A stretch of DNA of 64,000 bases, from NCBI RefSeq assembly GCF_030013205.1, contig NZ_CP122648.1. One strand, 5' to 3'. A program made the position numbers and the translations under genes. This stretch comes from Escherichia coli (GTDB lineage: Bacteria > Pseudomonadota > Gammaproteobacteria > Enterobacterales > Enterobacteriaceae). Positions within the stretch are counted from its first letter, which is position 1. Each line of letters starts with the position of its first letter. The notes under the pieces are model-generated. The model saw nothing but the letters and a program-made list of their open reading frames with translations. It ran no database searches and was not told the origin of the DNA. Below are positions 43,339 to 57,448 of the stretch, one piece after another.

Positions 43339-43426
43339 GGTGAGGTGTCCGAGTGGCTGAAGGAGCACGCCTGGAAAGTGTGTATACGGCAACGTATCGG
43401 GGGTTCGAATCCCCCCCTCACCGCCA
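43339..43426 (+). tRNA. serW: tRNA-Ser (anticodon GGA)
   Basis: 88-nt GGTGAGGTGTCCGAGTGG...TTCGAATCCCCCCCTCACCGCCA with long variable arm and GGA in the anticodon loop. Confidence 0.93.
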
Positions 43427-43472
43427 TATTCAAAGAAGAGCTCGTACGAAAGTAGGGGCTTTTTTTTCGCAT
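43408..43472. repeat. direct repeat copy 1 (tRNA-Ser 3' end plus terminator)
   Basis: aatccccccctcaccgccatattcaaagaagagctcgtacgaaagtaggggcttttttttcgcat. Confidence 0.7.
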
Positions 43473-43587
43473 ATTGCACACACCGGGGGGATGAGAAGCC
43501 CCGACCGGGGTTCGACAACTGGCGCAGCCAGTTGGACAGACCACGAACACAGTGAGTGGGCTGCCCGCAGGGCGAGCGAAGCGAGTC

Positions 43588-43651
43588 AATCCCCCCCTCA
43601 CCGCCATATTTAAAGAAAAACTCGTACGAAAGTACGAGTTTTTTTTCGCAT
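43588..43651. repeat. direct repeat copy 2 (duplicated tRNA-Ser 3' end plus terminator)
   Basis: aatccccccctcaccgccatatttaaagaaaaactcgtacgaaagtacgagttttttttcgcat, near-identical to copy 1. Confidence 0.7.
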
Positions 43652-46517: not shown

Positions 46518-46690
46518 TGTCAGTTATCATCTTCGGTTACGGTTATCGGCAGAACGCCCTGCCGCTGACAAGAGCTTATTTGCCTGACCAATCTACTCCA
46601 CATGATAGATAACTATCATTTATATCATTTAGTTAATTAGTCTTTATTTTTCATTATGTTGCAAATAACAACCCCGTCAAAAACAGTGAT

Positions 46691-46715
46691 ATTAACTACA
46701 CCATTAACTACACCG
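46691..46715. repeat. island-end repeat attaactacaccattaactacaccg (tandem 12-mers)
   Basis: Near-identical 25-mer at 57068..57092; both followed by CGAACAA-type motifs. Confidence 0.6.
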
Positions 46716-47303
46716 CTTCACGAACAATATCGAACAACCGCGAACAAAGATCAACACGCTTTAATCATTATCATTTTCCGGCTATCCGTCATGAAGCTGG
46801 TGGATGATCTGCGTGGTGATTTCCACCATTCAGAGCAGGGGCGGTCATCATGACCATGCCATAACAAAAACCCCATATTCGTGGTTTTTCTGTGTCGGGG
46901 CTATTCTGCTGTTGCCGTGCTGGTGGATATTCTCCGGTATGCGGCTCCCCATATCGGCATCAGGCCCACCAGCGTGAAGCGTTTTTCATTTTTCGCGGGT
47001 ATAAAAAATCGATGGGGCGGGCAGTCCTGAAGACGTCAGGGTACGGAGATTTGACCCGCCCCTCCCTGTGCATGAGCACAATAAGTAACCGAAGGCGGAA
47101 TTCCGCCCTCGGTACTTACATATGAGAAACGATATTTCTTCCACCGATACCCTTTATTTGGGTATTGCGAGTAAGCCCCAAAATCTGGGTGTTACTCTTA
47201 CTACCCAAACTACGGGTAGTTTCCGTAGTTTCATGGTCGAGTTGCAAATCTGCAACTCACCCACCAGCCAACGCAATTTTGCGTTATCGGGAATATCAGC
47301 AAG

Positions 47304-47591
47304 TTACCGCCGCAGTCGTTCCGGCTTCTTCCACTGGTAAGTATTTTTCGCGCTCTCCCTCCGTTGTTGAGAACGGCGACGGTATGCCAGCAACTCAAGG
47401 ACTCTGGTTCGTATGTTGCGCATATCCACGCCGTTAAGCTCAATACCATCACGGCGCATCACCTCAGCAACAACACGCGCGTAATTTTCAGCGGTGACTG
47501 TATCCGGCTGCGCGGCCTGTTCGTCAGCCAACTGGCTGATTCCACCAGCACAGCGGATTAATCGCAGTATTTCAGATTCGGTCATTATCAT
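47304..47591 (-). CDS. hypothetical protein downstream of terS-like gene
   Basis: 95-aa ORF, ATG overlaps the upstream stop. Confidence 0.5.
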   Translation of the reverse strand: MIMTESEILRLIRCAGGISQLADEQAAQPDTVTAENYARVVAEVMRRDGIELNGVDMRNIRTRVLELLAYRRRSQQRRESAKNTYQWKKPERLRR

Positions 47592-48073
47592 GCCTGTTTT
47601 GCGACCTCATTCACTACGTCATTTTTTACCATCCGGCTGATAATCTGATTACACAAATCGTCAATAATTGACTGCACTCTGTTTACTGCCATCGGTTTAA
47701 GCCCGGCATCACGTGCCAGAATATTGGGGAGTTTTGCCAGTTCCTCGCTTACGATTTCCCCCCATATAGCCATCTCTTTTCGCACATCATCGGCGGGTAT
47801 GAGTTGCGCCGTTTCCTGTTCGAACTTGAGGCGTTCACGTTCGGACTGATACCAGGCCTTACGGTCTTGTGGCTCCATTTCTTCCAGTGATGCCGGAACG
47901 GGAAGATCAAGAAAACAGGTCAGAATGTCAGTCACCCGATAGAGTTTCAGCTTGTCATGCCCTCCGGCTGGCTGGATGTTTTTCAGCCTTGCCGCCGCAG
48001 TCTGACGACATATTCCCGCTATCGCCGCCAGTTGATTAATGTTCAGCATCAGATTTTTCAGTTCTCGATCCAT
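47588..48073 (-). CDS. Nu1-like small terminase subunit / packaging-redirection (Rpp-like) protein
   Basis: ATG at 48073 (MDRELKNLMLNINQLAAIAGICRQTAAARL...), N-terminal wHTH plus coiled coil resembling lambda Nu1; the track start at 48160 is TTG. Confidence 0.55.
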   Translation of the reverse strand: MDRELKNLMLNINQLAAIAGICRQTAAARLKNIQPAGGHDKLKLYRVTDILTCFLDLPVPASLEEMEPQDRKAWYQSERERLKFEQETAQLIPADDVRKEMAIWGEIVSEELAKLPNILARDAGLKPMAVNRVQSIIDDLCNQIISRMVKNDVVNEVAKQA

Positions 48074-48226
48074 ACCCGCTCCAGAATGTTTTAAACATGC
48101 ATCTTGCGAACAACTTTCAGAAGAGGTCAAAAAATGCGCTATATGTTGAGCATAAAACAAGCAAAATTAACATGCCAAAAATAAAAATACTTAAAATTCA
48201 ATACAATATGAAGATGATGATGACGA

Positions 48227-48322
48227 ATGAAAATGCAAAAACTAGCCTTTTTCCGCGCCGCTCCCGCCCCGTGGCAGACCACTCCACCGGGAGGACCCGT
48301 AAAAAAGGCGGCTGTCGCCGCC
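48227..48322. repeat. conserved intergenic element A (about 72 nt shared with element B, then a GC hairpin)
   Basis: About 85 percent identical to 50761..50832; hairpin ggcggctgtcgccgcc at 48307..48322. Confidence 0.6.
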
Positions 48323-48329
48323 CTTGTTG

Positions 48330-50243
48330 TCATGCTCCACTCGATTTCAGTAATCCGCGATAATCGAGGGCCGCGACACCTGCATCTATGCGCACTTTCC
48401 AGGCGACACCATCAACAGTAAAGCCCACCTGCTCCTCAAGATATGGCGTATCCATACCATCAAGATAAGCGACTTCTATTGTGTCCATCCCCTTAGCTGC
48501 GGCTACATACCATTCCTTGCTATTGGCCTTATCAAGACGTGGCTCAACAATTACTTCTGCCATATCTTTCACCACGTTAATGATGCCGGGGTTCTGATTG
48601 ATAGTGCTCTCATCACCAACCGGAAAGACTGATGACGATGACAGAATGGCGCGACGCGCGGCAGATTCCAGCGCGGCAGGGACCAGAACAAAAGCAGGGG
48701 TAATATTCAGTGAGTCGCCGTTAGCATCCTCCTGGAGGCGCATCAGCTTACGGGCTTCATCAAGCCCCACCATGTCCATATCCTTCGCAATAAGATTTTT
48801 ATGATCGGCATGGAATAACGCTTTACCATCCGTAAATTTGCCGTTGCTGGTTAACAGAAGATAAACCAGATTACCTACTGTTCTGGCGGCCGCACGCCCC
48901 ATCGCCATGGGGATTGTAGTTAACTGGGTCAGGTCATCGTTGATAATGGCCTGACGGGTAACAGAAAAAATATTACCGTATGTGGCCAGCGCAATAGGTA
49001 CACCTTTATCGCTGGTGGTGATGTATTTATATTCCGCACCTTCCGGTACTTTATCCAGCTTTGAAAAACCATTCAGACCAACGCGCTTTGCTTCATGAAA
49101 GTTTGAAAGCGATCCGGTACGCGTCCATTTCTGGAACGTTTCGCCGCTGTCCTGCCAGCCTTTCAGCACTGATTTTTCAGCACCACCAGCCAGAATATGA
49201 GAAAAATCGCTGCTGCTGTGTGTGAAAGCTGCATTAACGACCTGCGAGCGATTTAAAAAACTGCCAACACTGATACCACGATCAGTTAGTGATGCCTGGG
49301 CCATTTCAAAAAGGCTCATCATCGCGTAAGGATTTCCCCGCTCTGGGCGTTCATACCCAAGACGAGAATAAAGCCCCTGACGAATTGCATCGCCTGTTAT
49401 GTTCCCGTTACCGGCATAAATATGAGTCGGGATATTTTTATTGGATGGCGTGGACTCGCGCCCCAGCTCGTTCAACAACTTTTCACGGGCCATCTCCGGT
49501 GTACATGATGCATCCTCCAGGCACGCCATTTTGATCCCGTCGTAACGACTGCCGAACAGGCTAAACACTTCACTTATTCCGTTGATGCGCTTCTGTTCAT
49601 TACCAGCAATATTGGCTGCTCCCTGTGGCGGGGTAATCATTCCTTTAATGGTTTCAGGCATGTGTGAAAAATCTCCTGTGCGTTTCGATTCAATTCGCGC
49701 CATTGCTGTGACAGATGGCAACAATTCATCAGCAAAACCGTGCTTAAGGCATTCTTTCCCGTCCATCCAGGTTTCATCTTCCAGCATGGCGGTAATTTCC
49801 TGTGCTGATTTGCCCGTTTTTCTGGCATAAGCAGGGACTAACACGGTTTCCACCTTATCCAGCAAATCAGCATAATCACGCATATCACCAGCATTTCCGC
49901 CAGAGATACCCCACGGCTTATGTATCATCATCATGGCGTTTTCCGGCATCACAACACGATCGCCAGCCATTGCGACAACCGAAGCCATTGAAGCCGCAAC
50001 ACCATCGATATAAACCGTAATTTCTGCCGGATGATTCCGTAACAGGTTATAGATGGCGATGCCTTCAAACACGTCACCACCTGGCGAATGGATCCGCAGG
50101 TCGATATGTGAGACATCGCCCAGGGCTTTCAGGTCTTCCGCAAACTGCTTCGCGGTAATACCGAAGCCGCCAATTTCTTCATAGATGGATATTTCTGCCG
50201 CTCCGCGAACACCCAGCGCCTTAATGGTGTACCAGTGATTCAT
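48330..50243 (-). CDS. prohead protease (ClpP/S49-like) fused to HK97-fold major capsid protein
   Basis: Single 637-aa ORF; N-terminal serine-protease-like region (HSPGGDVFEGIAIYN...), C-terminal roughly 400 aa capsid-like. Confidence 0.8.
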   Translation of the reverse strand: MNHWYTIKALGVRGAAEISIYEEIGGFGITAKQFAEDLKALGDVSHIDLRIHSPGGDVFEGIAIYNLLRNHPAEITVYIDGVAASMASVVAMAGDRVVMPENAMMMIHKPWGISGGNAGDMRDYADLLDKVETVLVPAYARKTGKSAQEITAMLEDETWMDGKECLKHGFADELLPSVTAMARIESKRTGDFSHMPETIKGMITPPQGAANIAGNEQKRINGISEVFSLFGSRYDGIKMACLEDASCTPEMAREKLLNELGRESTPSNKNIPTHIYAGNGNITGDAIRQGLYSRLGYERPERGNPYAMMSLFEMAQASLTDRGISVGSFLNRSQVVNAAFTHSSSDFSHILAGGAEKSVLKGWQDSGETFQKWTRTGSLSNFHEAKRVGLNGFSKLDKVPEGAEYKYITTSDKGVPIALATYGNIFSVTRQAIINDDLTQLTTIPMAMGRAAARTVGNLVYLLLTSNGKFTDGKALFHADHKNLIAKDMDMVGLDEARKLMRLQEDANGDSLNITPAFVLVPAALESAARRAILSSSSVFPVGDESTINQNPGIINVVKDMAEVIVEPRLDKANSKEWYVAAAKGMDTIEVAYLDGMDTPYLEEQVGFTVDGVAWKVRIDAGVAALDYRGLLKSSGA

Positions 50244-50449
50244 TGCTCCCCCCCAGATGCAAAACCATTCTTATCAAGCCACGCGTTAACCGCGTGTCTG
50301 ACAATCTGCGCCGCACCTGGTAATGGTTGGTCAGGATGATGATTTATGTGGTCGATCCTGTACTGCTTAAGGCGCATAACGGTCTGCGCATCCAGATGAA
50401 CGGAACCACCTTTTACCTCGCCTGTGTTCAGGTCGTTAATACAATTCAC
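50240..50449 (-). CDS. hypothetical small protein (non-ATG start)
   Basis: 69-aa ORF with GTG start and AGAGGA RBS; stop overlaps the capsid start. Confidence 0.4.
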   Translation of the reverse strand: MNCINDLNTGEVKGGSVHLDAQTVMRLKQYRIDHINHHPDQPLPGAAQIVRHAVNAWLDKNGFASGGEQ

Positions 50450-50760
50450 AGTAACTTCCTCTTACTGACTAAACTGCGCGCATTATTGATCGATAAAAGT
50501 GGTAGATAAACATATTTCTATCATAAAAATAGATTAATCAGATTCAGACACAAAAAAGCCGGAGAGAATCCGGCATAAATATCCCGCCATCTGAACACGT
50601 TTTGCACAGGCAACTCCATCTGGCAGGTGAAAAACAAATTTATTTATATATTTCAATTAATTGCAAACTGGTCTAATGACAGGGAGAAAAAAATATTGTA
50701 CAGGTGAAAACAGAAATAACTTTTAATTATCAATAAATTACTACACATGCTGCCGCCGCC

Positions 50761-50858
50761 ATGAAAATGCAAAAACCAGCCTTTTTCCGCGACGCTCCCG
50801 CCCCGTGGCAGGTCACTACACCGGGAGGACCCATAAAAAAGCCGGATTGCTCCGGCTT
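50761..50858. repeat. conserved intergenic element B (copy of element A core, different terminal hairpin)
   Basis: atgaaaatgcaaaaaccagcctttttccgcg...ccgggaggaccc then gccggattgctccggc hairpin with T-run on the minus strand. Confidence 0.6.
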
Positions 50859-50872
50859 CTGTTACTCGTTGC

Positions 50873-51295
50873 TTAAAACGGTATGTTATCCCCGTACGGA
50901 TCATCATTTCCCGCCTGTTGTTTTGCTCTGCTCAGTGCATCAGTAGCCTGCCCCTGTTGGCCTTTTTTGCCGCCCGGTCGCGCCGTTCTCGCACTGATTA
51001 CGCTGTCTGCGATAACCTGCCAGCCCTGCCGCGTCTCCCCGTTCTGTCCGGTCCACTGGCTCACCTGCATGTTACCCGCCACGCTCAGGAGTTCACCCTT
51101 GCGGTGCTTTGCCAGTGCTTCGGCCTGTCTGCCAAACGCCAGGACGGATAACCACATCGTCGCCGTTCCGTCATCTGCCTGGCTGCACGGAAGTGGGACC
51201 GCCATACTCGCCATCGTCATTTGTGTACCCTTGCTGGTGGTCTTTAACTGCGGGTCAGCCACCAGCCGCCCGTAAGCCGCTATCTGTGCTGTCAT
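50873..51295 (-). CDS. single-stranded DNA-binding protein (SSB-like)
   Basis: 140 aa, OB-fold-like N-terminus and acidic C-terminal tail DDPYGDNIPF like the SSB DDDIPF tail. Confidence 0.65.
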   Translation of the reverse strand: MTAQIAAYGRLVADPQLKTTSKGTQMTMASMAVPLPCSQADDGTATMWLSVLAFGRQAEALAKHRKGELLSVAGNMQVSQWTGQNGETRQGWQVIADSVISARTARPGGKKGQQGQATDALSRAKQQAGNDDPYGDNIPF

Positions 51296-51537
51296 GCTGT
51301 CTGCTCTCCGGTTTTAACGTTGATGGTTGTCACCTGTTCCGCTTCGGCAATCTCCCGTTCTGTCAGCGTGGCAAAGTTTGCAGCTGCCGTTGTCATGAAT
51401 GAGCTAATCAGTTCGGGATGTGCTTTCGCATATCCTTCCCCGGCGTTGCGGTCGATGATTTTTATCGACACCCTTAACCAGTGTTCCGTCAAATCAAGGG
51501 CGTGCGATTGTGATTTTTTTGTGTGCTTCGCTGTCAT
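51292..51537 (-). CDS. hypothetical protein
   Basis: 81-aa ORF overlapping the SSB start. Confidence 0.45.
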   Translation of the reverse strand: MTAKHTKKSQSHALDLTEHWLRVSIKIIDRNAGEGYAKAHPELISSFMTTAAANFATLTEREIAEAEQVTTINVKTGEQTA

Positions 51538-51583
51538 AGGCTTTATCTCACAGCAGTAAATTAAAATTTTTGCGTTTTAACCC

Positions 51584-51812
51584 TTCACCTGTTCACCTTT
51601 TGATATTTTATCTTTTAATTCATAATGTTAAGGGGTGAACAGTTTCACAAAAACTATTCACCAACTGTTCACCACTGTTCACCCTTGAAGCTCAATAAAC
51701 AATCAAAAAGGTGAACAGTGAATAGTTTGGTGAACAGTTCATAAATAACTGTTCACCCTATAACATACTGATACAAAAGATATTTATGACAGGGTGAACA
51801 GTGGTGAACAGT
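51584..51812. repeat. iteron array: at least 9 copies of TGTTCACC/GGTGAACA in both orientations (P4 ori/crr-like)
   Basis: Octamers counted at 51590, 51634, 51666, 51676, 51710, 51729, 51750, 51793, 51803, with TATTCACC variants; immediately downstream of the alpha-like gene. Confidence 0.7.
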
Positions 51813-51824
51813 TATTCCATAAGT

Positions 51825-53642
51825 TTAATTTTTGCTATCGTCATTAGTGACCGATACACATGATGGCATCCAGTCTTCTGATTCCTCCGTCAGTGTCACG
51901 TTTGAACGCAAACCGTGCTTCGTTTTCCGTTTCATATACTCCCTGCCATATTCCGCCATTGCCCCCGGCATATCTTTACCGAAGCGCGTCAGTGTTACAG
52001 GTTTACCAAACCCATGTGCCCTCATATAAGCCAGATAGGCATGATAGAGATACCTGCGTGGGCTGAATGGCACAATTTCAGCATTACCCACTAACAGGCC
52101 ATCACACATTACCGACGCCATGAGATAGCCGCAGAAGTCCACCAGCGAATCCCCCTCTCGCTTTATCGCCAGTGCTTCTTCAGATTTCTGCTGCTCATAT
52201 AACAGGCGTCTGGCTTCGTCCTGGTCAGCAAACCGTGTAAGCAGATGGCGAATCACTACCGCCAGCTCACCTTCTATTTTTTCCGCCAGCATTGGATCGC
52301 GTTCGTTCTCCGGTACAACTTCCGAAAAATTGAATATCACCCGACGACGTGAGATCCCCCCGCTGCGGTCACTGAATGACATGGCGTTATTGTTAACCGC
52401 CAGCACTACTGCCGGAATACGCGTTGAGTAGGGGGCTTTGTGTTTCGGGTCAATTGCCACCTTGTCACCGCCTGTAATGGCCTTAATTCCTGCCCCATCA
52501 CCAGCGTAGCGGGTCATATCCGGCATGATAATCAGCGAAAAGCCAACCACTAACGCGCGTTCCCTTGCATCTTCCAGCGCCTTCATGCTTGCCGATACTG
52601 TGTTGGCCTTACCCGCCAGCATGGTGCAAATCTCCGCCATCACGCTTTTACCACTTCCCCCTGGACCTGTTACCTCAATGAATAACTGCCAGTCGTACCG
52701 GTTCGCCAGCACCATGAATAATGCAGCCAGTACGCGATCCGCCTTGCGGTCATTCTCAGCCACCGAACGGCGTAACCACTTCCAGAAATTCGGCGCATGT
52801 GTTGCCAGCGTTTCCCCCTCTGCTGGTGGGCTGAAAGGTAATTCACTGGCAATTAACAACCAGTCGTTTTTGTTATGCTCCCGAAAATTACCTGTTCTGG
52901 TATCAAATACCCCGTTACTGAATCCAATCAGGTTACGGGCTGTATTCCCCATAACAGGCAAACTTAACTTCATGGTATCGACCGCCGATTTAATGGCGTT
53001 CTGCGAATAGCTGATCTCCGCATCAATGAAAATCTGTGCCATAGCTCGCTGTAATTCTTTATCCTGTACTGGCTCCCATACAACGCCGTTGTAATGGTGA
53101 ACAGTGTCAGAGTCAGCATGAATCGCCAGTTCACCGCCATAATGTGCCAGGAGAACTTCGCCGCGTTGACTTGCTCCCATCTGGTTAAGCGCCAGTGATG
53201 AAGCGTTATCGTCTTTTACCCGCTCTTTTTTCTTTACAGGCAGTTCAACTACCTTTTTCTTTTCCGCCTGCTCTGCCCGTTCACGTTCCAGATATTCGCG
53301 CCAGTTCTCCCGTTTCTGGCTGTGCATTCCTTCAGGGTAATAATCAGCATCCCTGACACCTGCCGCTGCCAGTTTCTGCCCGATGGTATTAACAAGCCCC
53401 GGACGCAATAACCCCGCCTGGTAGAGACGCACGCGATAGCGTCCGTCCGGTACGATTTGCAGGTTGTCCAGTTCGGCAAGTTGTTGCTCTCCAAGCCAGA
53501 CAGGTGGCACGTTATCGCCAGCCAGTCGCCCGTCCTGTTCCTGCCACTGCTTCGCATGTGCCCACGCATCACTACCCGCAAAAATGATGACTTCCGTCAT
53601 TTTGTCACGCGGCTGGTGTTTTAAATTTGGCGCTTTTTTCAT
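51825..53642 (-). CDS. P4 alpha-like replication protein (D5_N / SF3 helicase, primase-helicase family)
   Basis: Walker A GPGGSGKS; ATG at 53642 with GGAGAG RBS; the track start at 53657 is GTG. Confidence 0.8.
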   Translation of the reverse strand: MKKAPNLKHQPRDKMTEVIIFAGSDAWAHAKQWQEQDGRLAGDNVPPVWLGEQQLAELDNLQIVPDGRYRVRLYQAGLLRPGLVNTIGQKLAAAGVRDADYYPEGMHSQKRENWREYLERERAEQAEKKKVVELPVKKKERVKDDNASSLALNQMGASQRGEVLLAHYGGELAIHADSDTVHHYNGVVWEPVQDKELQRAMAQIFIDAEISYSQNAIKSAVDTMKLSLPVMGNTARNLIGFSNGVFDTRTGNFREHNKNDWLLIASELPFSPPAEGETLATHAPNFWKWLRRSVAENDRKADRVLAALFMVLANRYDWQLFIEVTGPGGSGKSVMAEICTMLAGKANTVSASMKALEDARERALVVGFSLIIMPDMTRYAGDGAGIKAITGGDKVAIDPKHKAPYSTRIPAVVLAVNNNAMSFSDRSGGISRRRVIFNFSEVVPENERDPMLAEKIEGELAVVIRHLLTRFADQDEARRLLYEQQKSEEALAIKREGDSLVDFCGYLMASVMCDGLLVGNAEIVPFSPRRYLYHAYLAYMRAHGFGKPVTLTRFGKDMPGAMAEYGREYMKRKTKHGLRSNVTLTEESEDWMPSCVSVTNDDSKN

Positions 53643-53938
53643 TTCGGCTCTCTCCACGCGGCAATCATGTTTTTCAGTTCCTGCAGTTTTTTATCCACAT
53701 CCACACGTGACACATGGTTATTTCTGGAAGTCGGGATTTCCCGCCGGAATCTGCTAATAAAGATCTCCACGTTCAGCGAACTATGAAATGAATAGCCATC
53801 ACGAATAAAATACACACGGTCAAACATCAGTTCTTTTACCGTTACTCTGTTACCGTTCTTATCCAGATAAATAGCGCCGGGGATAATTTTGGGGTGTGCA
53901 TAACCGCTGGCAGTCAAGCCAGATAAATATGTTCTCAT
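53639..53938 (-). CDS. hypothetical protein
   Basis: 99-aa ORF, overlapping start/stop with the alpha-like gene. Confidence 0.45.
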   Translation of the reverse strand: MRTYLSGLTASGYAHPKIIPGAIYLDKNGNRVTVKELMFDRVYFIRDGYSFHSSLNVEIFISRFRREIPTSRNNHVSRVDVDKKLQELKNMIAAWREPK

Positions 53939-53944
53939 GATTAT

Positions 53945-54265
53945 TTATCCCCGATTTGAATCAGTATTCGCTTTCTTTATGGCATTTAATGCATCTGTGG
54001 CATTTTCAATGGTGCACCGTAACGAAATATCAAACTGCCCAAGCATTGCCAGTAACAAACCGATATTACCCATATCAATGCGCATGGCCTTTTCGTCATA
54101 GTCCTCATTTTCTGACGCATGCCACATCAGGCTACCAATTGACGCAACAGCCATTGATATATTGTCAGTAGCCCCATCAGCAGCGGAATAAACCTTTTTA
54201 GCAATATCATGCTCACAGTTAAAATGCGGATTAATCAGGTACTGGTAATTTGACATATCAGGCAT
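53945..54265 (-). CDS. hypothetical protein
   Basis: 106-aa ORF. Confidence 0.45.
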   Translation of the reverse strand: MPDMSNYQYLINPHFNCEHDIAKKVYSAADGATDNISMAVASIGSLMWHASENEDYDEKAMRIDMGNIGLLLAMLGQFDISLRCTIENATDALNAIKKANTDSNRG

Positions 54266-54461
54266 GGCACACCCCCTGACGAATACGGGCGGCGAATACC
54301 ATCACGTAGCCAGCCGGGGATTGCTGGCGTGCTTCCTGTTCACTGGTGGCCTCAATGGTAATCACGCGCGGTTGTGCCGTGCTCAGGGCGATAAAACGCC
54401 AGATGTATTTATTCAGGTTGTACGAGTCCCGCCCTTGCGGGTGTCTGGTATAATTTCTCAT
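54258..54461 (-). CDS. hypothetical small protein (real part of a spurious 302-aa track ORF)
   Basis: Internal ATG at 54461 with GAGG RBS (MRNYTRHPQGRDSYNLNKYIW...). Confidence 0.3.
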   Translation of the reverse strand: MRNYTRHPQGRDSYNLNKYIWRFIALSTAQPRVITIEATSEQEARQQSPAGYVMVFAARIRQGVCHA

Positions 54462-54540
54462 AGCTGCCTCGATACTGTTGCTATCGTTGGTGGTTAGACG
54501 CCCTGCATGTGTGCCACCACTGCGGGGCGTTGTTGCTTGG

Positions 54541-54630
54541 TGCATCGCACCATTCGTTTTTAACCTATCAGCAAGTGAATCGCACTTCAAGCCTTTCTCT
54601 GAAATTTTTTTTGTGTATACTGAATCGCAC
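54541..54630. promoter_or_regulatory. three direct repeats TG(C/A)ATCGCAC plus a TATACT -10-like box upstream of the RHH gene
   Basis: Copies at 54541, 54576 and 54621; TATACT at 54616..54621. Confidence 0.4.
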
Positions 54631-54651
54631 CAACTTAGAGAGGATTCAGTA

Positions 54652-54831
54652 ATGGCAACAGGTTCAACAAATAATAAGTCGCAACAGTTAAATGCCAGAT
54701 TCCCGCATGATGTTGTTGCAGACTTAGAAAAAAATTTAGATGAAGGTGAAAGCAAGGCGCAATTTATAGTTACTGCCGTTAAAGGCGAGATCAAACGCCG
54801 CCAGCGCCGCAAGGCCAAAGAGCAGGAGTAA
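54652..54831 (+). CDS. ribbon-helix-helix (Arc/CopG-like) DNA-binding protein
   Basis: 59 aa; N-terminal beta-strand-like LNARFPHDVVADL; GAGAGG RBS. Confidence 0.55.
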   Translation: MATGSTNNKSQQLNARFPHDVVADLEKNLDEGESKAQFIVTAVKGEIKRRQRRKAKEQE

Positions 54832-54873
54832 CCATCACCAGCGCCGTGGTGTGAGTAACTACGGCGCATTGCT

Positions 54874-55062
54874 ATGCAGGACAACACAATGACCGATAAA
54901 GAATTGACCAAAACATTATCACCGGCACGGAAAAGACGGCGCAGAAAGATAGAGCATGAATCAGAAAGATTCGCGCCATGTGCTTTTGCTCTTGAGAAAT
55001 TCCTTAAAGAGCACAGGAAAAAGCTCTCGTTGCAAACCTTGGAACGAACCAAATCTGACTGA
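54874..55062 (+). CDS. hypothetical small basic protein
   Basis: 62-aa ORF followed by hairpin ggcgaccgcccccggtcgcc with T-run. Confidence 0.3.
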   Translation: MQDNTMTDKELTKTLSPARKRRRRKIEHESERFAPCAFALEKFLKEHRKKLSLQTLERTKSD

Positions 55063-55176
55063 TCACATTGCCCACCAGCCGCAAATGTGGCATTGTTGGT
55101 GATGCGTTCAAGTTTAGTGTGTATCCATTGGCGACCGCCCCCGGTCGCCTTTGTTTTATATGTCATATGCTCCCCT

Positions 55177-55386
55177 TTACGCTGCCTTGCCTGAATTAAT
55201 GCGATCCCGGCTTTTAACCCATTCCATAACCTCGGACAGCAGCCAACCTACAGAACGACCGCCCAGATTACGGCGTGACGGGAAATTCCCTTTTTTCTCC
55301 AGTTCATAGCGTGTAGTGCGACACACTCCAGTTAACTTACGACATTCATCCTCACGGATTACGCGATCTTCATTTATTTCACGCAT
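55177..55386 (-). CDS. alpA: AlpA-family transcriptional regulator
   Basis: 69 aa, MREINEDRVIREDECRKLTGVCRTTRYELEKKGNFP... typical AlpA/Xis HTH. Confidence 0.8.
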   Translation of the reverse strand: MREINEDRVIREDECRKLTGVCRTTRYELEKKGNFPSRRNLGGRSVGWLLSEVMEWVKSRDRINSGKAA

Positions 55387-55805
55387 ACAAAAACCTACAT
55401 AAAAAATTACGTATATAAACTTTTCTCTTAGCTGTAGATATATGAGATCGGATATTACTTAGATTCTTTTTTCACCTCTTAAATTAAAAACACAACCTTG
55501 CTAAAGGCTTTGTTCGCTAAGGTTCGTAGAAGCTCGTTAGTGTTTAAAATCGTGTCACGAGTTTTTAAGCGATGCAACAAAAAATGTCGTTACTTGGCAT
55601 TACGCTTGAATTATCTCATTAAAAACAAATAGATAAACCATCAAGTGTTGGAACAATCAAGAAACAGAGAATAAAAGTTCAGAAGAAGACATTCCAATTT
55701 TTTGATGGTTGACATATATAAAGCGAAGATATTTGCAGATATTTTCCGATATTCTACGATTTATTCACGGCTGTAATCTCTTAAAGAAAAAACAGCCGTA
55801 ATTTG

Positions 55806-57053
55806 TCAAGAATTTTGGGGGTAAATTCGCGGGGTCATAACAACGATTTTTTCATCATTGTTCTGGAGAAGCTCGAGACGGTCTACCCATAGATTAAGAG
55901 CATCACGTTTTGCATCAAGATAACGGGAGTGGTTATAGACTCGTTGCATCCCCGGCATCTGGTGGGCGGTAAGCTGCTCGACAATATGCGGATCCACGCC
56001 TAAATCGTTCAGCATGGTTGTAAATGTGTGCCGGATGTCATGCAACGACCAGGGGGCTTGATTAATGCGTCTGTGTGCCGTTCTTCCGTACTCTGCTACG
56101 GATGATTGCCCTTTCAGTTCTCCAAGCAATAAGCCCGTGTGCCTGTTCTTCTCCACCAGCTTCATGACAAACGGCAAGATCGCTTCCGGTATTGGCCTGA
56201 ATATTGCTACCTTCGTTTTGCTGTGTTCTTTCGGCACAGTCCAGAGCATTTCTTTAAAATCCCATTCCTGAACCTCGGAGCGTCTTAGCTCAGTGGTACG
56301 GCATCCAAAGACAATCAGAAGGCGAATTAAGGCGCTGTAGTACGGCGGGAAAATTTTTTCATCCAGTGCGCGGAGTAGCTCGCCAAGCTCCTTGTTTGTT
56401 AGCACTCGCTCGCTTATTTCTGCTTTTTTTCCCACATCACCTACGACCATATCATCAAGAACGTTACTGACGGCGTAGCGACGTTTACGGCAGTACTTAA
56501 GCGCCTGCTTGCATACCTGCAACAAAAAGCCGGCTGATACCGGATTACGCTTAGCAAGCTGGTCAAAACAGGCCAGCCAGTGGCGTAACTCGCATTTATC
56601 CAGCGGCATAGCACCAATCTGGCTGATTATGTGCTTATTGATCCGGCTTTTCAGTGATTCGTGGTCAGTGCGCTTTTCCTTCGCGTATGACTCAAGCCAG
56701 TAAGTGATCGCGTCCTTAACCGTTACAGGTGCTAACGCTTCCTGCACTGTGTGATTAAGCTCATGGCGTGGATTTTTCCCCTCCGCCAGCCAGGCGCGAC
56801 ACTGTGCCGCTTTTTCTCTGGCTGCTTTCAGGCTCAGATCGGGATAGTTGCCCAGTCTCAGGCGTTCCGGTGATACCTGCCTGCCAGTTCCGGCCCTGTA
56901 AGTGAAATACCAGGTTAACAGGCCATTGGTTGAATGCCTTACGCTAAGGTTGCCACCATCATTAAAAAAGGTGTTTTTTGTGGTTGGTGATCCGCTTAAT
57001 TTTCGTAAAAGAGTGTCGCTAAGTCTATGAATTGCCCTGCTCATGTTTCGCAT
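55806..57053 (-). CDS. int: tyrosine integrase (P4-type)
   Basis: 415 aa with catalytic-region motifs (HDIRHTFTT, YNHSRY); at the island end next to cspD. Confidence 0.9.
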   Translation of the reverse strand: MRNMSRAIHRLSDTLLRKLSGSPTTKNTFFNDGGNLSVRHSTNGLLTWYFTYRAGTGRQVSPERLRLGNYPDLSLKAAREKAAQCRAWLAEGKNPRHELNHTVQEALAPVTVKDAITYWLESYAKEKRTDHESLKSRINKHIISQIGAMPLDKCELRHWLACFDQLAKRNPVSAGFLLQVCKQALKYCRKRRYAVSNVLDDMVVGDVGKKAEISERVLTNKELGELLRALDEKIFPPYYSALIRLLIVFGCRTTELRRSEVQEWDFKEMLWTVPKEHSKTKVAIFRPIPEAILPFVMKLVEKNRHTGLLLGELKGQSSVAEYGRTAHRRINQAPWSLHDIRHTFTTMLNDLGVDPHIVEQLTAHQMPGMQRVYNHSRYLDAKRDALNLWVDRLELLQNNDEKIVVMTPRIYPQNS

Positions 57054-57067
57054 TTCCGGTCATCAAA

Positions 57068-57092
57068 ATTAACTACACCATTGACTACACCG
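57068..57092. repeat. island-end repeat attaactacaccattgactacaccg
   Basis: 24 of 25 identical to 46691..46715; 15 bp beyond the integrase start. Confidence 0.6.
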
Positions 57093-57448
57093 TGCATCGT
57101 ACAAGGGCAAACAGCGACGAACAAGGGCGAACAAGAAAAACGAAATTTTCCTTTATAATCATAGCAATAAATGAGATAGATACACCACGACGAACACCCG
57201 CGAACACTAACTGATAAATAACTATCATCTATCGTTGGCATCAGCGACATCTGTCACATTCCTGTCAATAGCGTTAACTGCTTCAAATTTTTGATTCATA
57301 CCTGCCCCCTGGCCCCTGTCAAATGCTTGACGGCTCGCCCTAATTCTCTAAATTGTATTTCTAGAGTTGACGAGGTTTTGAACAGCCCCCTCTCTGACCC
57401 CGGTTTATTCCATCTTACTTGTATAAGATTTGCGAAGGATGTCGAAGC

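Follow-up and report, generated by a model that had tools for sequence, protein, structure and literature searches.

A protease-capsid fusion gene in a cos-packaged Escherichia coli phage satellite: a catalogued family with a probable accessory role

Why would a small chromosomal island carry a gene that joins a prohead protease to a major capsid protein? The question arose from a window of 64,000 nucleotides from Escherichia coli (contig NZ_CP122648.1), in which one open reading frame on the minus strand at 48330..50243 encodes a ClpP-like prohead protease, a scaffold-like linker and an HK97-fold major capsid protein in a single chain. A sequence-only reading of the window had described this 637-codon frame as uninterrupted and its architecture as unusual. 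The coordinates proved exact, and the frame runs from an ATG through 637 amino acids with zero internal stops. The presence of a ClpP-type serine protease and an HK97-fold capsid domain in one ORF was likewise borne out by matches to Pfam, NCBIfam and PHROG models. NF045540 (“ClpP-like prohead protease/major capsid protein fusion”) matched over the full length with 903.9 bits against a cutoff of 475 (E 7e-272), phrog_133 also covered the full length (E 8e-284), and the sister model NF045541 gave a score of 372, under its cutoff of 525. PGAP names the identical gene [quoted passage not shown]. The claim of unusualness, in contrast, was not sustained: the architecture defines a curated NCBIfam family, is found in approximately 140 of the best 150 representatives of clusters at 50% identity, and is that of the head gene normally present in mEp460, mEp213, LLS, cdtI and several Stx phages. 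One 59%-identical representative, P0121, sits on a 2.3-kb contig.

Such a frame could be an artefact, if a frameshift introduced in sequencing or assembly had merged separate protease and capsid genes; alternatively, the locus could be a decayed prophage remnant rather than a satellite. We found no points in favour of either. The identical 637-aa protein is recorded on 365 contigs with no sign of a split, the gene is present at ≥93% nucleotide identity in 194 of 5426 complete E. coli genomes, and the phage homologues are single ORFs too. Cultured phages as well as hundreds of independent assemblies show the same frame. The HMM match lies in one frame over its full length. Against a prophage remnant stand a precise att duplication, a complete int-alpA-pri-ori backbone, and occupation of the same integration place in 51 complete genomes. 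Frameshift artefact and prophage remnant were both rejected on the NF045540 match, the shared site, the 194 genomes and the 365 contigs, and we regard their probability as negligible. The gene is genuine and intact, and it belongs to a protease-scaffold-capsid fusion family that has been catalogued before.

Three parts can be distinguished in the protein. The protease domain (residues 1-180; 49704..50243, minus strand) matched Pfam CLP_protease over residues 38-175 (E 1.6e-34), and Foldseek aligned the N-terminus to ClpP structures with TM scores of 0.7-0.8 relative to the target. Catalytic Ser85 and His108 are present, and both are nearly invariant among 74 homologues (≥90% conserved). Residues ~181-330 (49254..49703, minus strand) form a linker that is all-helical with two flexible breaks in the AlphaFold model; it is the least conserved part of the protein and presumably acts as an internal scaffold. 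The earlier suggestion that the protease domain itself doubles as scaffold seems less plausible than a scaffold role for this predicted helical linker. The capsid domain (residues ~331-637; 48333..49253, minus strand) matched Pfam Phage_capsid_4 over residues 335-634 (E 4.4e-54). The structure models reached a pLDDT of 88. Because the full-length fold search was swamped by ClpP chains, residues 301-637 were modelled separately (pLDDT 88.7, pTM 0.83), and among the Foldseek matches listed for this model nearly all were HK97-fold phage capsids and encapsulins (probability 1.00, E 4e-9 to 2e-7). The C-terminal region is thus predicted to adopt the HK97 fold, as had been proposed. A PDB sequence search with the fusion returned only ClpP for the N-terminus and no match for the coat domain.

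Among the closest described counterparts is the “tripartite capsid gene” family of Gifsy-2, which shares the protease-linker-coat ORF and the catalytic Ser and His and to which mEp460 gp05, LLS gp5 and the genes of cdtI, mEp043/213 and Stx phages belong (NF045540). According to PMC12315714, which cites the Gifsy-2 work, the protease and coat genes of Gifsy-2 are fused, and autoproteolytic maturation in the prohead yields a coat protein of ~30-35 kDa. The window fusion differs from the phage members in that it is only 55-57% identical to any phage copy and does not adjoin portal, terL or decoration genes.

It lies instead in an island of 10,620 bp at ~46609-57228, between clpS and cspD. The island is bounded by direct repeats of the 11-bp core ATAACTATCAT at 46609..46619 (attL) and 57218..57228 (attR). 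On the opposite strand this core reads ATGATAGTTAT, which is the published att core of two PICIs at cspD-clpS, EcCIIHE3034 and EcCI18098 (Table S1). A tandem pair of the 12-mer ATTAACTACACC (46691..46714, plus strand) is a possible arm-type integrase site; the window holds four copies, all at the two ends of the island, against 0.21 expected by chance. All genes of the backbone lie on the minus strand. A tyrosine integrase (55806..57044; phrog_1) and an AlpA-type regulator/excisionase (55177..55386; phrog_2790) are 94% and 98.6% identical to their counterparts in EcCIIHE3034. A primase/D5-type replication protein (51825..53642; phrog_864, E 6e-193; “DNA primase family protein” in PGAP) is followed directly 3' by a replication origin at 51588..51812, in which ten GGTGAACAGT iterons cluster; the window contains 13 matches to this motif against 3.4 expected, and the position agrees with the PICI ori described in PMC6092414. 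A single-stranded DNA-binding protein (50873..51295; phrog_44) is 92% identical to the EcCIIHE3034 SSB. The late module ends with a conserved hypothetical gene encoding 93-95 aa (47304..47585, minus strand; phrog_1561, E 1e-52; also called by PGAP), whose product is 78% identical to that of EcCIIHE3034.

Next to the fusion, the sequence-only reading had noticed a 69-aa ORF with a GTG start and taken it for the only other morphogenesis gene nearby. The ORF exists (orf69; 50240..50449, minus strand; phrog_4934, E 5e-30). Its stop overlaps the fusion start (ATGA), the two genes are translationally coupled, and homologues occupy the same position in satellites of E. coli, Klebsiella, Dickeya and Serratia and also precede the lambda-E-type capsid gene of EcCIIHE3034. 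The sequence pattern suggests a ribbon-helix-helix (RHH) DNA-binding fold. The idea that orf69 is a connector remnant was dropped, as no similarity to the gpW-like head-tail protein of the helper was detectable.

The ORF is not, however, alone. Packaging parts also flank the fusion. A DUF1441 protein (47588..48073, minus strand) matched phrog_141, “terminase small subunit” (E 9e-57), and is 61-70% identical to the TerS proteins of mEp460 and of a helper prophage in which a related island is embedded (70% for the latter). The recognition helix and the C-terminal tail differ, and the protein may act as a TerS or as an Rpp-like packaging specificity factor. Two 94-nt direct repeats with 88% identity bracket the capsid gene: cos1 (48227..48320, minus strand; cosN GGGCGGGAGCGG at 48258-48269), which is preceded by a hairpin and a T-run, and cos2 (50761..50854, minus strand; cosN GGGCGGGAGCGT at 50792-50803). 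Both repeats align to the cosQ-cosN/cos junctions of lambda and LLS and are thus lambda-like. Annotation and PHROG scans of all island ORFs revealed no lysis, tail, portal, large terminase or connector genes, and a decoration gene is also absent from the island. The statement that the island supplies a capsid and nothing else therefore held for portal, TerL, connectors and tail, but failed for the TerS-like gene and the two cos-like sites. PADLOC detected no defence system in the fusion or in the small ORFs of the island, NCBIfam provided no name for the DUF1441 gene, orf69 or the other small ORFs, and a scan for consensus promoters and terminators gave nothing above chance.

By gene content and order the island is a classical, cos-packaged Gram-negative PICI, a satellite type that has already been described. 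It shares with the classical elements (Fillol-Salom 2018) a size of ~8-12 kb, a specific att site with a flanking direct repeat, co-oriented int, alpA and primase genes with an iteron ori 3' of the primase, two cosQ-cosN-like sites, and a TerS-derived factor (the phrog_141 match). Two sets of published PICIs resemble it in different parts. EcCI224, a reference Gram-negative PICI (Fillol-Salom et al. 2018, Table S1), shares the late module, made up of a fusion with 96% identity, the DUF1441 gene and the small hypothetical gene, as well as the 10.6 kb size and the Icd-like/DUF4222/primase backbone. Its integrase is different, and so is its att site, which the paper's table gives as frmR-thiM and the RefSeq annotation places between rcnR and thiM; it also has an extra DUF6387 gene, and no SSB is annotated. 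EcCIIHE3034 and EcCI18098 resemble the window island in att core, Int, AlpA, SSB and terminal small gene at the identities given above, whereas their late module is lambda-type, with E-like capsid, D-like decoration and Nu1-like TerS/Rpp genes, and their primase is only 48% identical. On these comparisons the window island is a mosaic of an EcCIIHE3034/EcCI18098 integration module and an EcCI224-type late module.

Other satellites share parts of this logic. EcCICFT073 (c1499 capsid, c1500 decoration, RppA, cos1/cos2) is likewise a cos-packaged PICI of ~11 kb that combines a lone capsid gene with two cos sites and a specificity factor derived from TerS (PMC6739421), but its capsid gene is lambda E-like without a protease fusion, and its helpers are lambda and phi80. 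The packaging factors differ as well: Rpp mimics TerS but is short and distant from it, and the DUF1441 protein is a TerS paralogue of nearly full length. The cf-PICIs, represented by EcCIEDL933, have the int/alpA/rep backbone and satellite-encoded capsid proteins in satellite-specific clades in common with the window island; they differ in possessing a full head and packaging set (portal, protease, connectors, HNH, TerS, TerL), where the window island has the fusion and the TerS-like gene only. Assignment to the cf-PICIs was rejected on the absence of this complete set by annotation and PHROG, and a P4-like satellite was rejected since no Sid, Psu or Delta matches were found by PHROG or annotation and the cos is lambda-like instead of P2-type. 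Tommasini, Mageeney and Williams (2023) described helper-embedded PICIs and tRNA-Ile2 PICIs “bearing a CLP_protease gene”, and the fusion-type late module also occurs in one PICI that is embedded in the terL of an mEp460-like prophage and in another that adjoins a tRNA-Ile gene. In strain EC21GDE043 the embedded PICI has a 95.6%-identical fusion, and the fusion of the prophage itself is 99.5% identical to mEp460 gp05. The window copy, unlike these helper-embedded PICIs, occupies a chromosomal intergenic site. Contrary to what had been supposed, a satellite with a lone capsid gene is not unusual, since 21 of the 29 reference Gram-negative PICIs have one (PMC10111431) and the EcCI224 fusion is nearly the same; the reference PICI EcCIRM13514 has no capsid gene. 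The gene is in this respect ordinary, because the family is catalogued and the satellite type already described.

What we add here is the satellite clade, its divergence from phage copies, purifying selection, and clade-specific indels. The satellite fusion is only ~57% identical to its closest phage or helper copy, with 59% identity between the satellite and helper coat domains, and in a neighbour-joining tree the satellite copies cluster away from the phage copies. The clade spans E. coli, Klebsiella, Dickeya and Serratia, and the orthologues of the last three genera (71-78% identity) lie in int-alpA-primase islands. Among E. coli satellite alleles dN/dS was 0.08 overall and 0.06-0.13 per domain, which indicates purifying selection in all three parts. 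The satellite clade is without ~29 linker residues found in the phage copies and has an insertion of ~10 residues in the loop after the second A-domain helix. On the evidence of its own clade, strong purifying selection and the clade-specific indels, the fusion is maintained as a functional gene rather than a relic, with a putative role in the satellite. An old satellite-specific Enterobacterales clade, strong selection and conserved differences from the helper copies argue that the gene does something for the satellite.

We hypothesize that the fusion is the late-module capsid gene of a classical cos-packaged PICI and that it is probably an accessory, which tunes or secures the capsid supply and is not strictly required. 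An mEp460-like helper, to which the related island embedded in such a prophage points indirectly, would induce the island, which would be excised and replicate from the iteron ori, and the late module would then be expressed. The 69-kDa precursor would assemble on the portals of the helper, either by itself or together with the helper paralogue of 57% identity, with the linker as internal scaffold and the protease domains facing inward. By analogy with the maturation reported for Gifsy-2, the protease would then remove roughly the N-terminal 300-330 residues, so that a shell protein of ~33 kDa remains. The DUF1441 TerS-like protein would retarget the helper terminase to the island's cos1, and approximately four tandem copies (4 x 10.6 = 42.5 kb) would fill a helper-sized head, to which helper tails would join. 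This tetramer packaging is extrapolated from arithmetic and from EcCICFT073, which has two cos sites and is packaged only as phage-length DNA (PMC6092414, PMC6739421). Deletion of the lambda-E-type capsid gene of EcCICFT073 left transfer and interference unchanged (PMC6092414), and therefore any benefit of such a gene would be conditional or subtle. At 57% identity, co-assembly with helper subunits and use of the helper portal or decoration protein are uncertain.

The same dispensability would suit a gene with no satellite role at all, a helper late gene captured into the dynamic “late zone” of a PICI. Prophage late genes are indeed captured by PICI late zones (PMC10111431), and one genome holds a truncated fusion copy beside IS1. 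Such a capture is, however, difficult to reconcile with phage copies of only 55-57% identity, the embedding helper included, with a separate clade across four genera that keeps the same coupled small ORF, or with a dN/dS of ~0.08 in all three domains and retained catalytic residues; we consider a mere passenger or relic improbable. The gene could alternatively be aimed at the helper, with the satellite precursor poisoning prohead assembly through mixed, mis-assembled shells or premature proteolysis and thereby cutting helper yield. Strong interference with helpers is a trait of classical PICIs, and faulty co-assembly is plausible for a paralogue that is 57% identical and has an altered scaffold. 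In EcCICFT073, however, interference has been mapped to the action of Rpp on TerS rather than to the capsid gene (PMC6739421, PMC6092414). The satellite, too, depends on functional heads, and the complete, catalytically intact precursor that is conserved is more than a poison subunit needs, which leaves this role very improbable.

A further possibility is redirection of capsid size. Here the fusion would act like Ccm of SaPIbov5, also a capsid-protein homologue from a cos-packaged satellite, and small shells, built alone or with helper subunits, would hold one 10.6-kb copy and exclude the 43-45-kb helper genome. Ccm is shown to make small capsids and belongs to an unrelated lineage and host phylum; PmCI172 offers another precedent, with small capsids and a capsid homologue also encoded (PMC6092414; 10.1101/2022.09.08.507074). 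The conserved linker deletion and loop insertion lie at sites that could set shell geometry, element size stays at ~10.2-11.2 kb across E. coli, the other three genera of the clade and a metagenome contig even though gene content differs, and by simple scaling arithmetic one island copy fits approximately a T=3 shell volume. Yet EcCICFT073, the E. coli PICI with a capsid gene that has been studied, is packaged as phage-sized DNA only and can do without its capsid gene (PMC6092414), which speaks against small capsids for the lambda-type module. The indels are modest, and the models describe a single protein and not an assembled shell. The constraint on element size can also be explained without small heads, because four island copies equal the helper genome length. 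We consider size redirection unlikely. A broader version, in which the fusion was not borrowed from a helper but has long been specialised for the satellite as a capsid protein that builds satellite-specific (smaller or chimeric) shells on helper portals, would draw on the conserved shortened linker, the extra A-domain loop, the constant coupling to the small RHH-like ORF and a tape-measure gene of the satellite that in some cases comes after the fusion; it too is a doubtful reading at present. We retain the accessory capsid gene as the working hypothesis.

These results mainly confirm known biology, a curated protein family in a mosaic of two published PICIs. The question that they leave is narrow but real: why do most Gram-negative PICIs retain a capsid gene that was dispensable in the sole laboratory test? 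The window island or EcCI224, combined with mEp460- or LLS-type helpers, provides a tractable test pair. If the specialised-capsid reading were true, these elements would occupy the ground between classical PICIs, whose theft extends to whole virions, and cf-PICIs, which take no more than tails.

The fusion gene was found exactly where the sequence-only reading had placed it, as one uninterrupted frame on the minus strand (48330-50243) with an ATG start, 637 residues and no internal stop. Pfam assigned CLP_protease to residues 38-175 (E = 1.6e-34) and Phage_capsid_4 to residues 335-634 (E = 4.4e-54), and PHROG 133 was matched over the full length. As a whole, the protein scored 903.9 bits against NF045540 (curated cutoff 475 bits), the NCBIfam family named 'ClpP-like prohead protease/major capsid protein fusion protein', and every computable test agreed with membership. 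An assembly artefact was ruled out: the identical 637-aa protein is on record in 365 contigs, the gene is present at a nucleotide identity of at least 93% in 194 of 5426 complete E. coli genomes, and the identical locus of strain KGu016 carries the NF045540 name in RefSeq.

An AlphaFold model of the full-length fusion was built from 74 homologues (mean pLDDT 88). Residues 1-180 form a compact alpha/beta domain, residues ~181-330 are helical throughout with two flexible breaks, and residues ~331-637 combine a long spine helix with a beta-rich core. In Foldseek comparisons the N-terminal part resembled ClpP structures (TM 0.7-0.8 relative to the targets), and a sequence search of the PDB concurred. 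Its ClpP catalytic positions are taken by Ser85 and His108, each with at least 90% conservation among the 74 homologues. Residues 301-637, modelled separately (pLDDT 88.7, pTM 0.83), had HK97-fold proteins as almost all of the best Foldseek matches listed, with a probability of 1.00, including the 80alpha/SaPI1, D3, T5, JBD30 and Bxb1 capsids and encapsulins. Pfam, NF045540 and Foldseek thus bear out the gene as a single-ORF ClpP-type serine protease and HK97-fold coat protein. The earlier description stands, since there is neither a frameshift or stop between the domains nor a C-terminus of another fold.

The same architecture had been thought unusual, which our searches contradict. Beyond the curated family, about 140 of the 150 best 50%-identity cluster representatives in a library of 1.84 billion proteins are 600-800 aa long, and most of the aligned representatives among those 150 cover both domains. 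Full-length homologues occur in 80 records of the GenBank phage collection, among them mEp043, mEp213, mEp460, cdtI, LLS, VT1-Sakai and several Stx2 phages. The gene order in mEp460 and LLS is terS-terL-gpW-portal, followed by the fusion and then a decoration gene. Protease and coat are also joined in one gene in Gifsy-2 (2010 work cited in PMC12315714).

The surrounding backbone is E. coli chromosome, with infA, serW, clpA and clpS on one side and cspD and macB on the other. Just upstream of clpA, tRNA-Ser(GGA) serW (43339-43426) and an RtT RNA match (43471-43606) are likewise ordinary chromosome, and the long ORFs there were rejected as spurious. Between clpS and cspD lies an island of 10,620 bp, bounded by ATAACTATCAT at 46609-46619 and 57218-57228. 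Its reverse complement, ATGATAGTTAT, is the core listed at 'cspD-clpS' for the phage-inducible chromosomal islands (PICIs) EcCIIHE3034 and EcCI18098 (Table S1, Fillol-Salom et al. 2018). Just inside both ends, at 46691-46714 and 57068-57091, are tandem 12-mers ATTAACTACACC, one of the four copies with a single mismatch; doubled, ATTAACTACACC is the reverse complement of the 'att site core' listed for EcCIDI14 (Fillol-Salom 2018). These repeats are probably arm-type integrase sites rather than a crossover core. The island encodes a tyrosine integrase, an AlpA regulator, Icd-like, YlcI/YnfO and DUF4222 proteins, a D5-type primase, an SSB and a late module. Ten GGTGAACAGT iterons lie directly 3' of the primase (13 matches in the window vs. 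3.4 expected by chance). In the ~700 bp from attL to the last island gene (46620-47300) there was no annotated gene, and no family match for the ORFs tested.

Compared with EcCIIHE3034, identity is 94% for the integrase, 98.6% for AlpA, 92% for the SSB and 78% for the terminal small gene; for the primase it is just 48%, and the late module has been swapped. That of EcCIIHE3034 consists of a small ORF, a lambda-E-like capsid, a D-like decoration protein and a Nu1-like 'terminase small subunit'; that of the window consists of a small ORF, the fusion and a DUF1441 protein. Exactly this module is found in the published reference PICI EcCI224, with fusions 96% identical. The island is therefore a mosaic of two described PICIs, EcCIIHE3034-like in its integration genes and EcCI224-like in its late module, and the finding is already known. 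All computable tests placed it among classical Gram-negative PICIs; the same approach rejected a cf-PICI and a P4-like satellite. Most Gram-negative PICIs carry a capsid gene (21/29 reference elements), and both tRNA-Ile2 PICIs 'bearing a CLP_protease gene' and abundant fis-adjacent PICIs have been described (PMC10111431). We also found the fusion in a tRNA-Ile PICI context. In E. coli F11 a tRNA-Ile island (locus L006, 9001-12334) is truncated in the fusion, with the N-terminus missing and IS1A nearby, an example of module decay.

The 69-aa ORF had been taken as the only other morphogenesis gene nearby, but packaging parts are present as well. The DUF1441 protein (47588-48073, minus strand) matched PHROG 141, 'terminase small subunit' (E = 9e-57), and is 61-70% identical over nearly its whole length to TerS of mEp460-type phages (70% to the helper TerS), with substitutions in the presumed HTH recognition helix and loss of the acidic C-terminal tail. 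The characterised Rpp proteins stand much further from lambda Nu1 than this protein does from TerS. A direct repeat of 94 nt (48227-48320 and 50761-50854, copies 88% identical) aligns to the lambda and LLS cos junctions, each copy being a cosQ-like block followed by cosN. The cosN sequences are GGGCGGGAGCGG in cos1 and GGGCGGGAGCGT in cos2, compared with GGGCGGCGACCT in lambda and GGGCGGCGCGCT in LLS/mEp213 (see also PMC12315714). The two sites flank the 69-aa ORF and the fusion, and cos1 lies ~150 bp upstream of the DUF1441 gene, the relative position of lambda cos to Nu1. This layout parallels EcCICFT073, with its two cos sites and its TerS-derived Rpp, the latter redirecting the helper terminase (PMC6739421).

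Strain EC21GDE043 harbours a PICI with the window's late module, its fusion 95.6% identical to that of the window, inserted into the terL gene (large terminase) of a prophage ordered DUF1441-TerS / terL / gpW / portal / fusion / DUF2190. The fusion belonging to the prophage itself shares 99.5% identity with mEp460 gp05 and just 57% with that of the satellite. This is the 'helper-embedded PICI' arrangement of Tommasini, Mageeney and Williams (PMC10111431), and it suggests that the helpers are mEp460/Gifsy-2-type lambdoid phages.

The closest copies in the GenBank phage collection are only 55-57% identical to the fusion. Proteins of 71-79% identity occur in Klebsiella, Dickeya, Pectobacterium, Serratia, Yersinia and others, and the three contexts opened (Dickeya, Klebsiella, Serratia) are int-alpA-primase islands adjoining fis/dusB. 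In each, the fusion start is overlapped by the end of a 59-64-aa ORF homologous to the 69-aa ORF of the window (50240-50449, minus strand, GTG start, stop overlapping the fusion ATG); these ORFs also resemble the one ahead of the EcCIIHE3034 lambda-E-type capsid gene. This family, which may be a ribbon-helix-helix protein to judge from the pattern of the alignment, is conserved between fusion-type and lambda-E-type PICIs (also L002, 7403-7609) and across four genera, and is translationally coupled to the capsid gene. RefSeq often leaves out such ORFs and calls a 57-aa opposite-strand ORF instead. A lambda-like, full-length tape-measure homologue (767-943 aa; TMP_2 with or without Tape_meas_lam_C) directly follows the fusion in elements from Dickeya, Klebsiella and a 10.6-kb metagenome contig with IncFII RepA in place of the primase (L007, 11156-13987; L009, 11186-13618; L018, 4481-6784); a coat gene and a tape measure alone are an odd set for a satellite to carry.

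Neighbour joining, without support values, grouped the satellite copies in a single clade whose sister group is the E. coli phage copies. For the E. coli satellite alleles, dN/dS was 0.08 overall and 0.06-0.13 for the protease, linker and coat parts taken singly. When set against the phage copies, all satellite copies are ~29 residues shorter where the helical linker begins and ~10 residues longer in a loop, modelled with low confidence, that follows the second A-domain helix. Recent capture and a decaying relic were both rejected on these grounds and on the low phage identity, which together argue for a maintained, functional, satellite-specific paralogue.

We propose that the fusion precursor would assemble on helper portals, with the linker as internal scaffold, and would then self-cleave to a ~33 kDa shell protein, as reported for Gifsy-2, while the DUF1441 protein and cos1 would steer helper terminase onto island concatemers. 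Four island copies amount to 42.5 kb, and the mEp043, LLS, mEp213 and mEp460 genomes to 42.8-44.5 kb, which fits the phage-length packaging of EcCICFT073 (PMC6092414). The main rival is a Ccm-like redirection of capsid size by the fusion. Deletion of the EcCICFT073 capsid or decoration gene left lambda interference and transfer unchanged, and the DNA packaged was all of phage size (PMC6092414). We give low weight to the fusion acting as a poison subunit, and likewise to its being a passenger gene. It also seems unlikely that the satellite clade holds a specialised coat protein building its own or chimeric shells. The reading we favour is that the satellite's own coat gene is accessory, serving head supply or compatibility.
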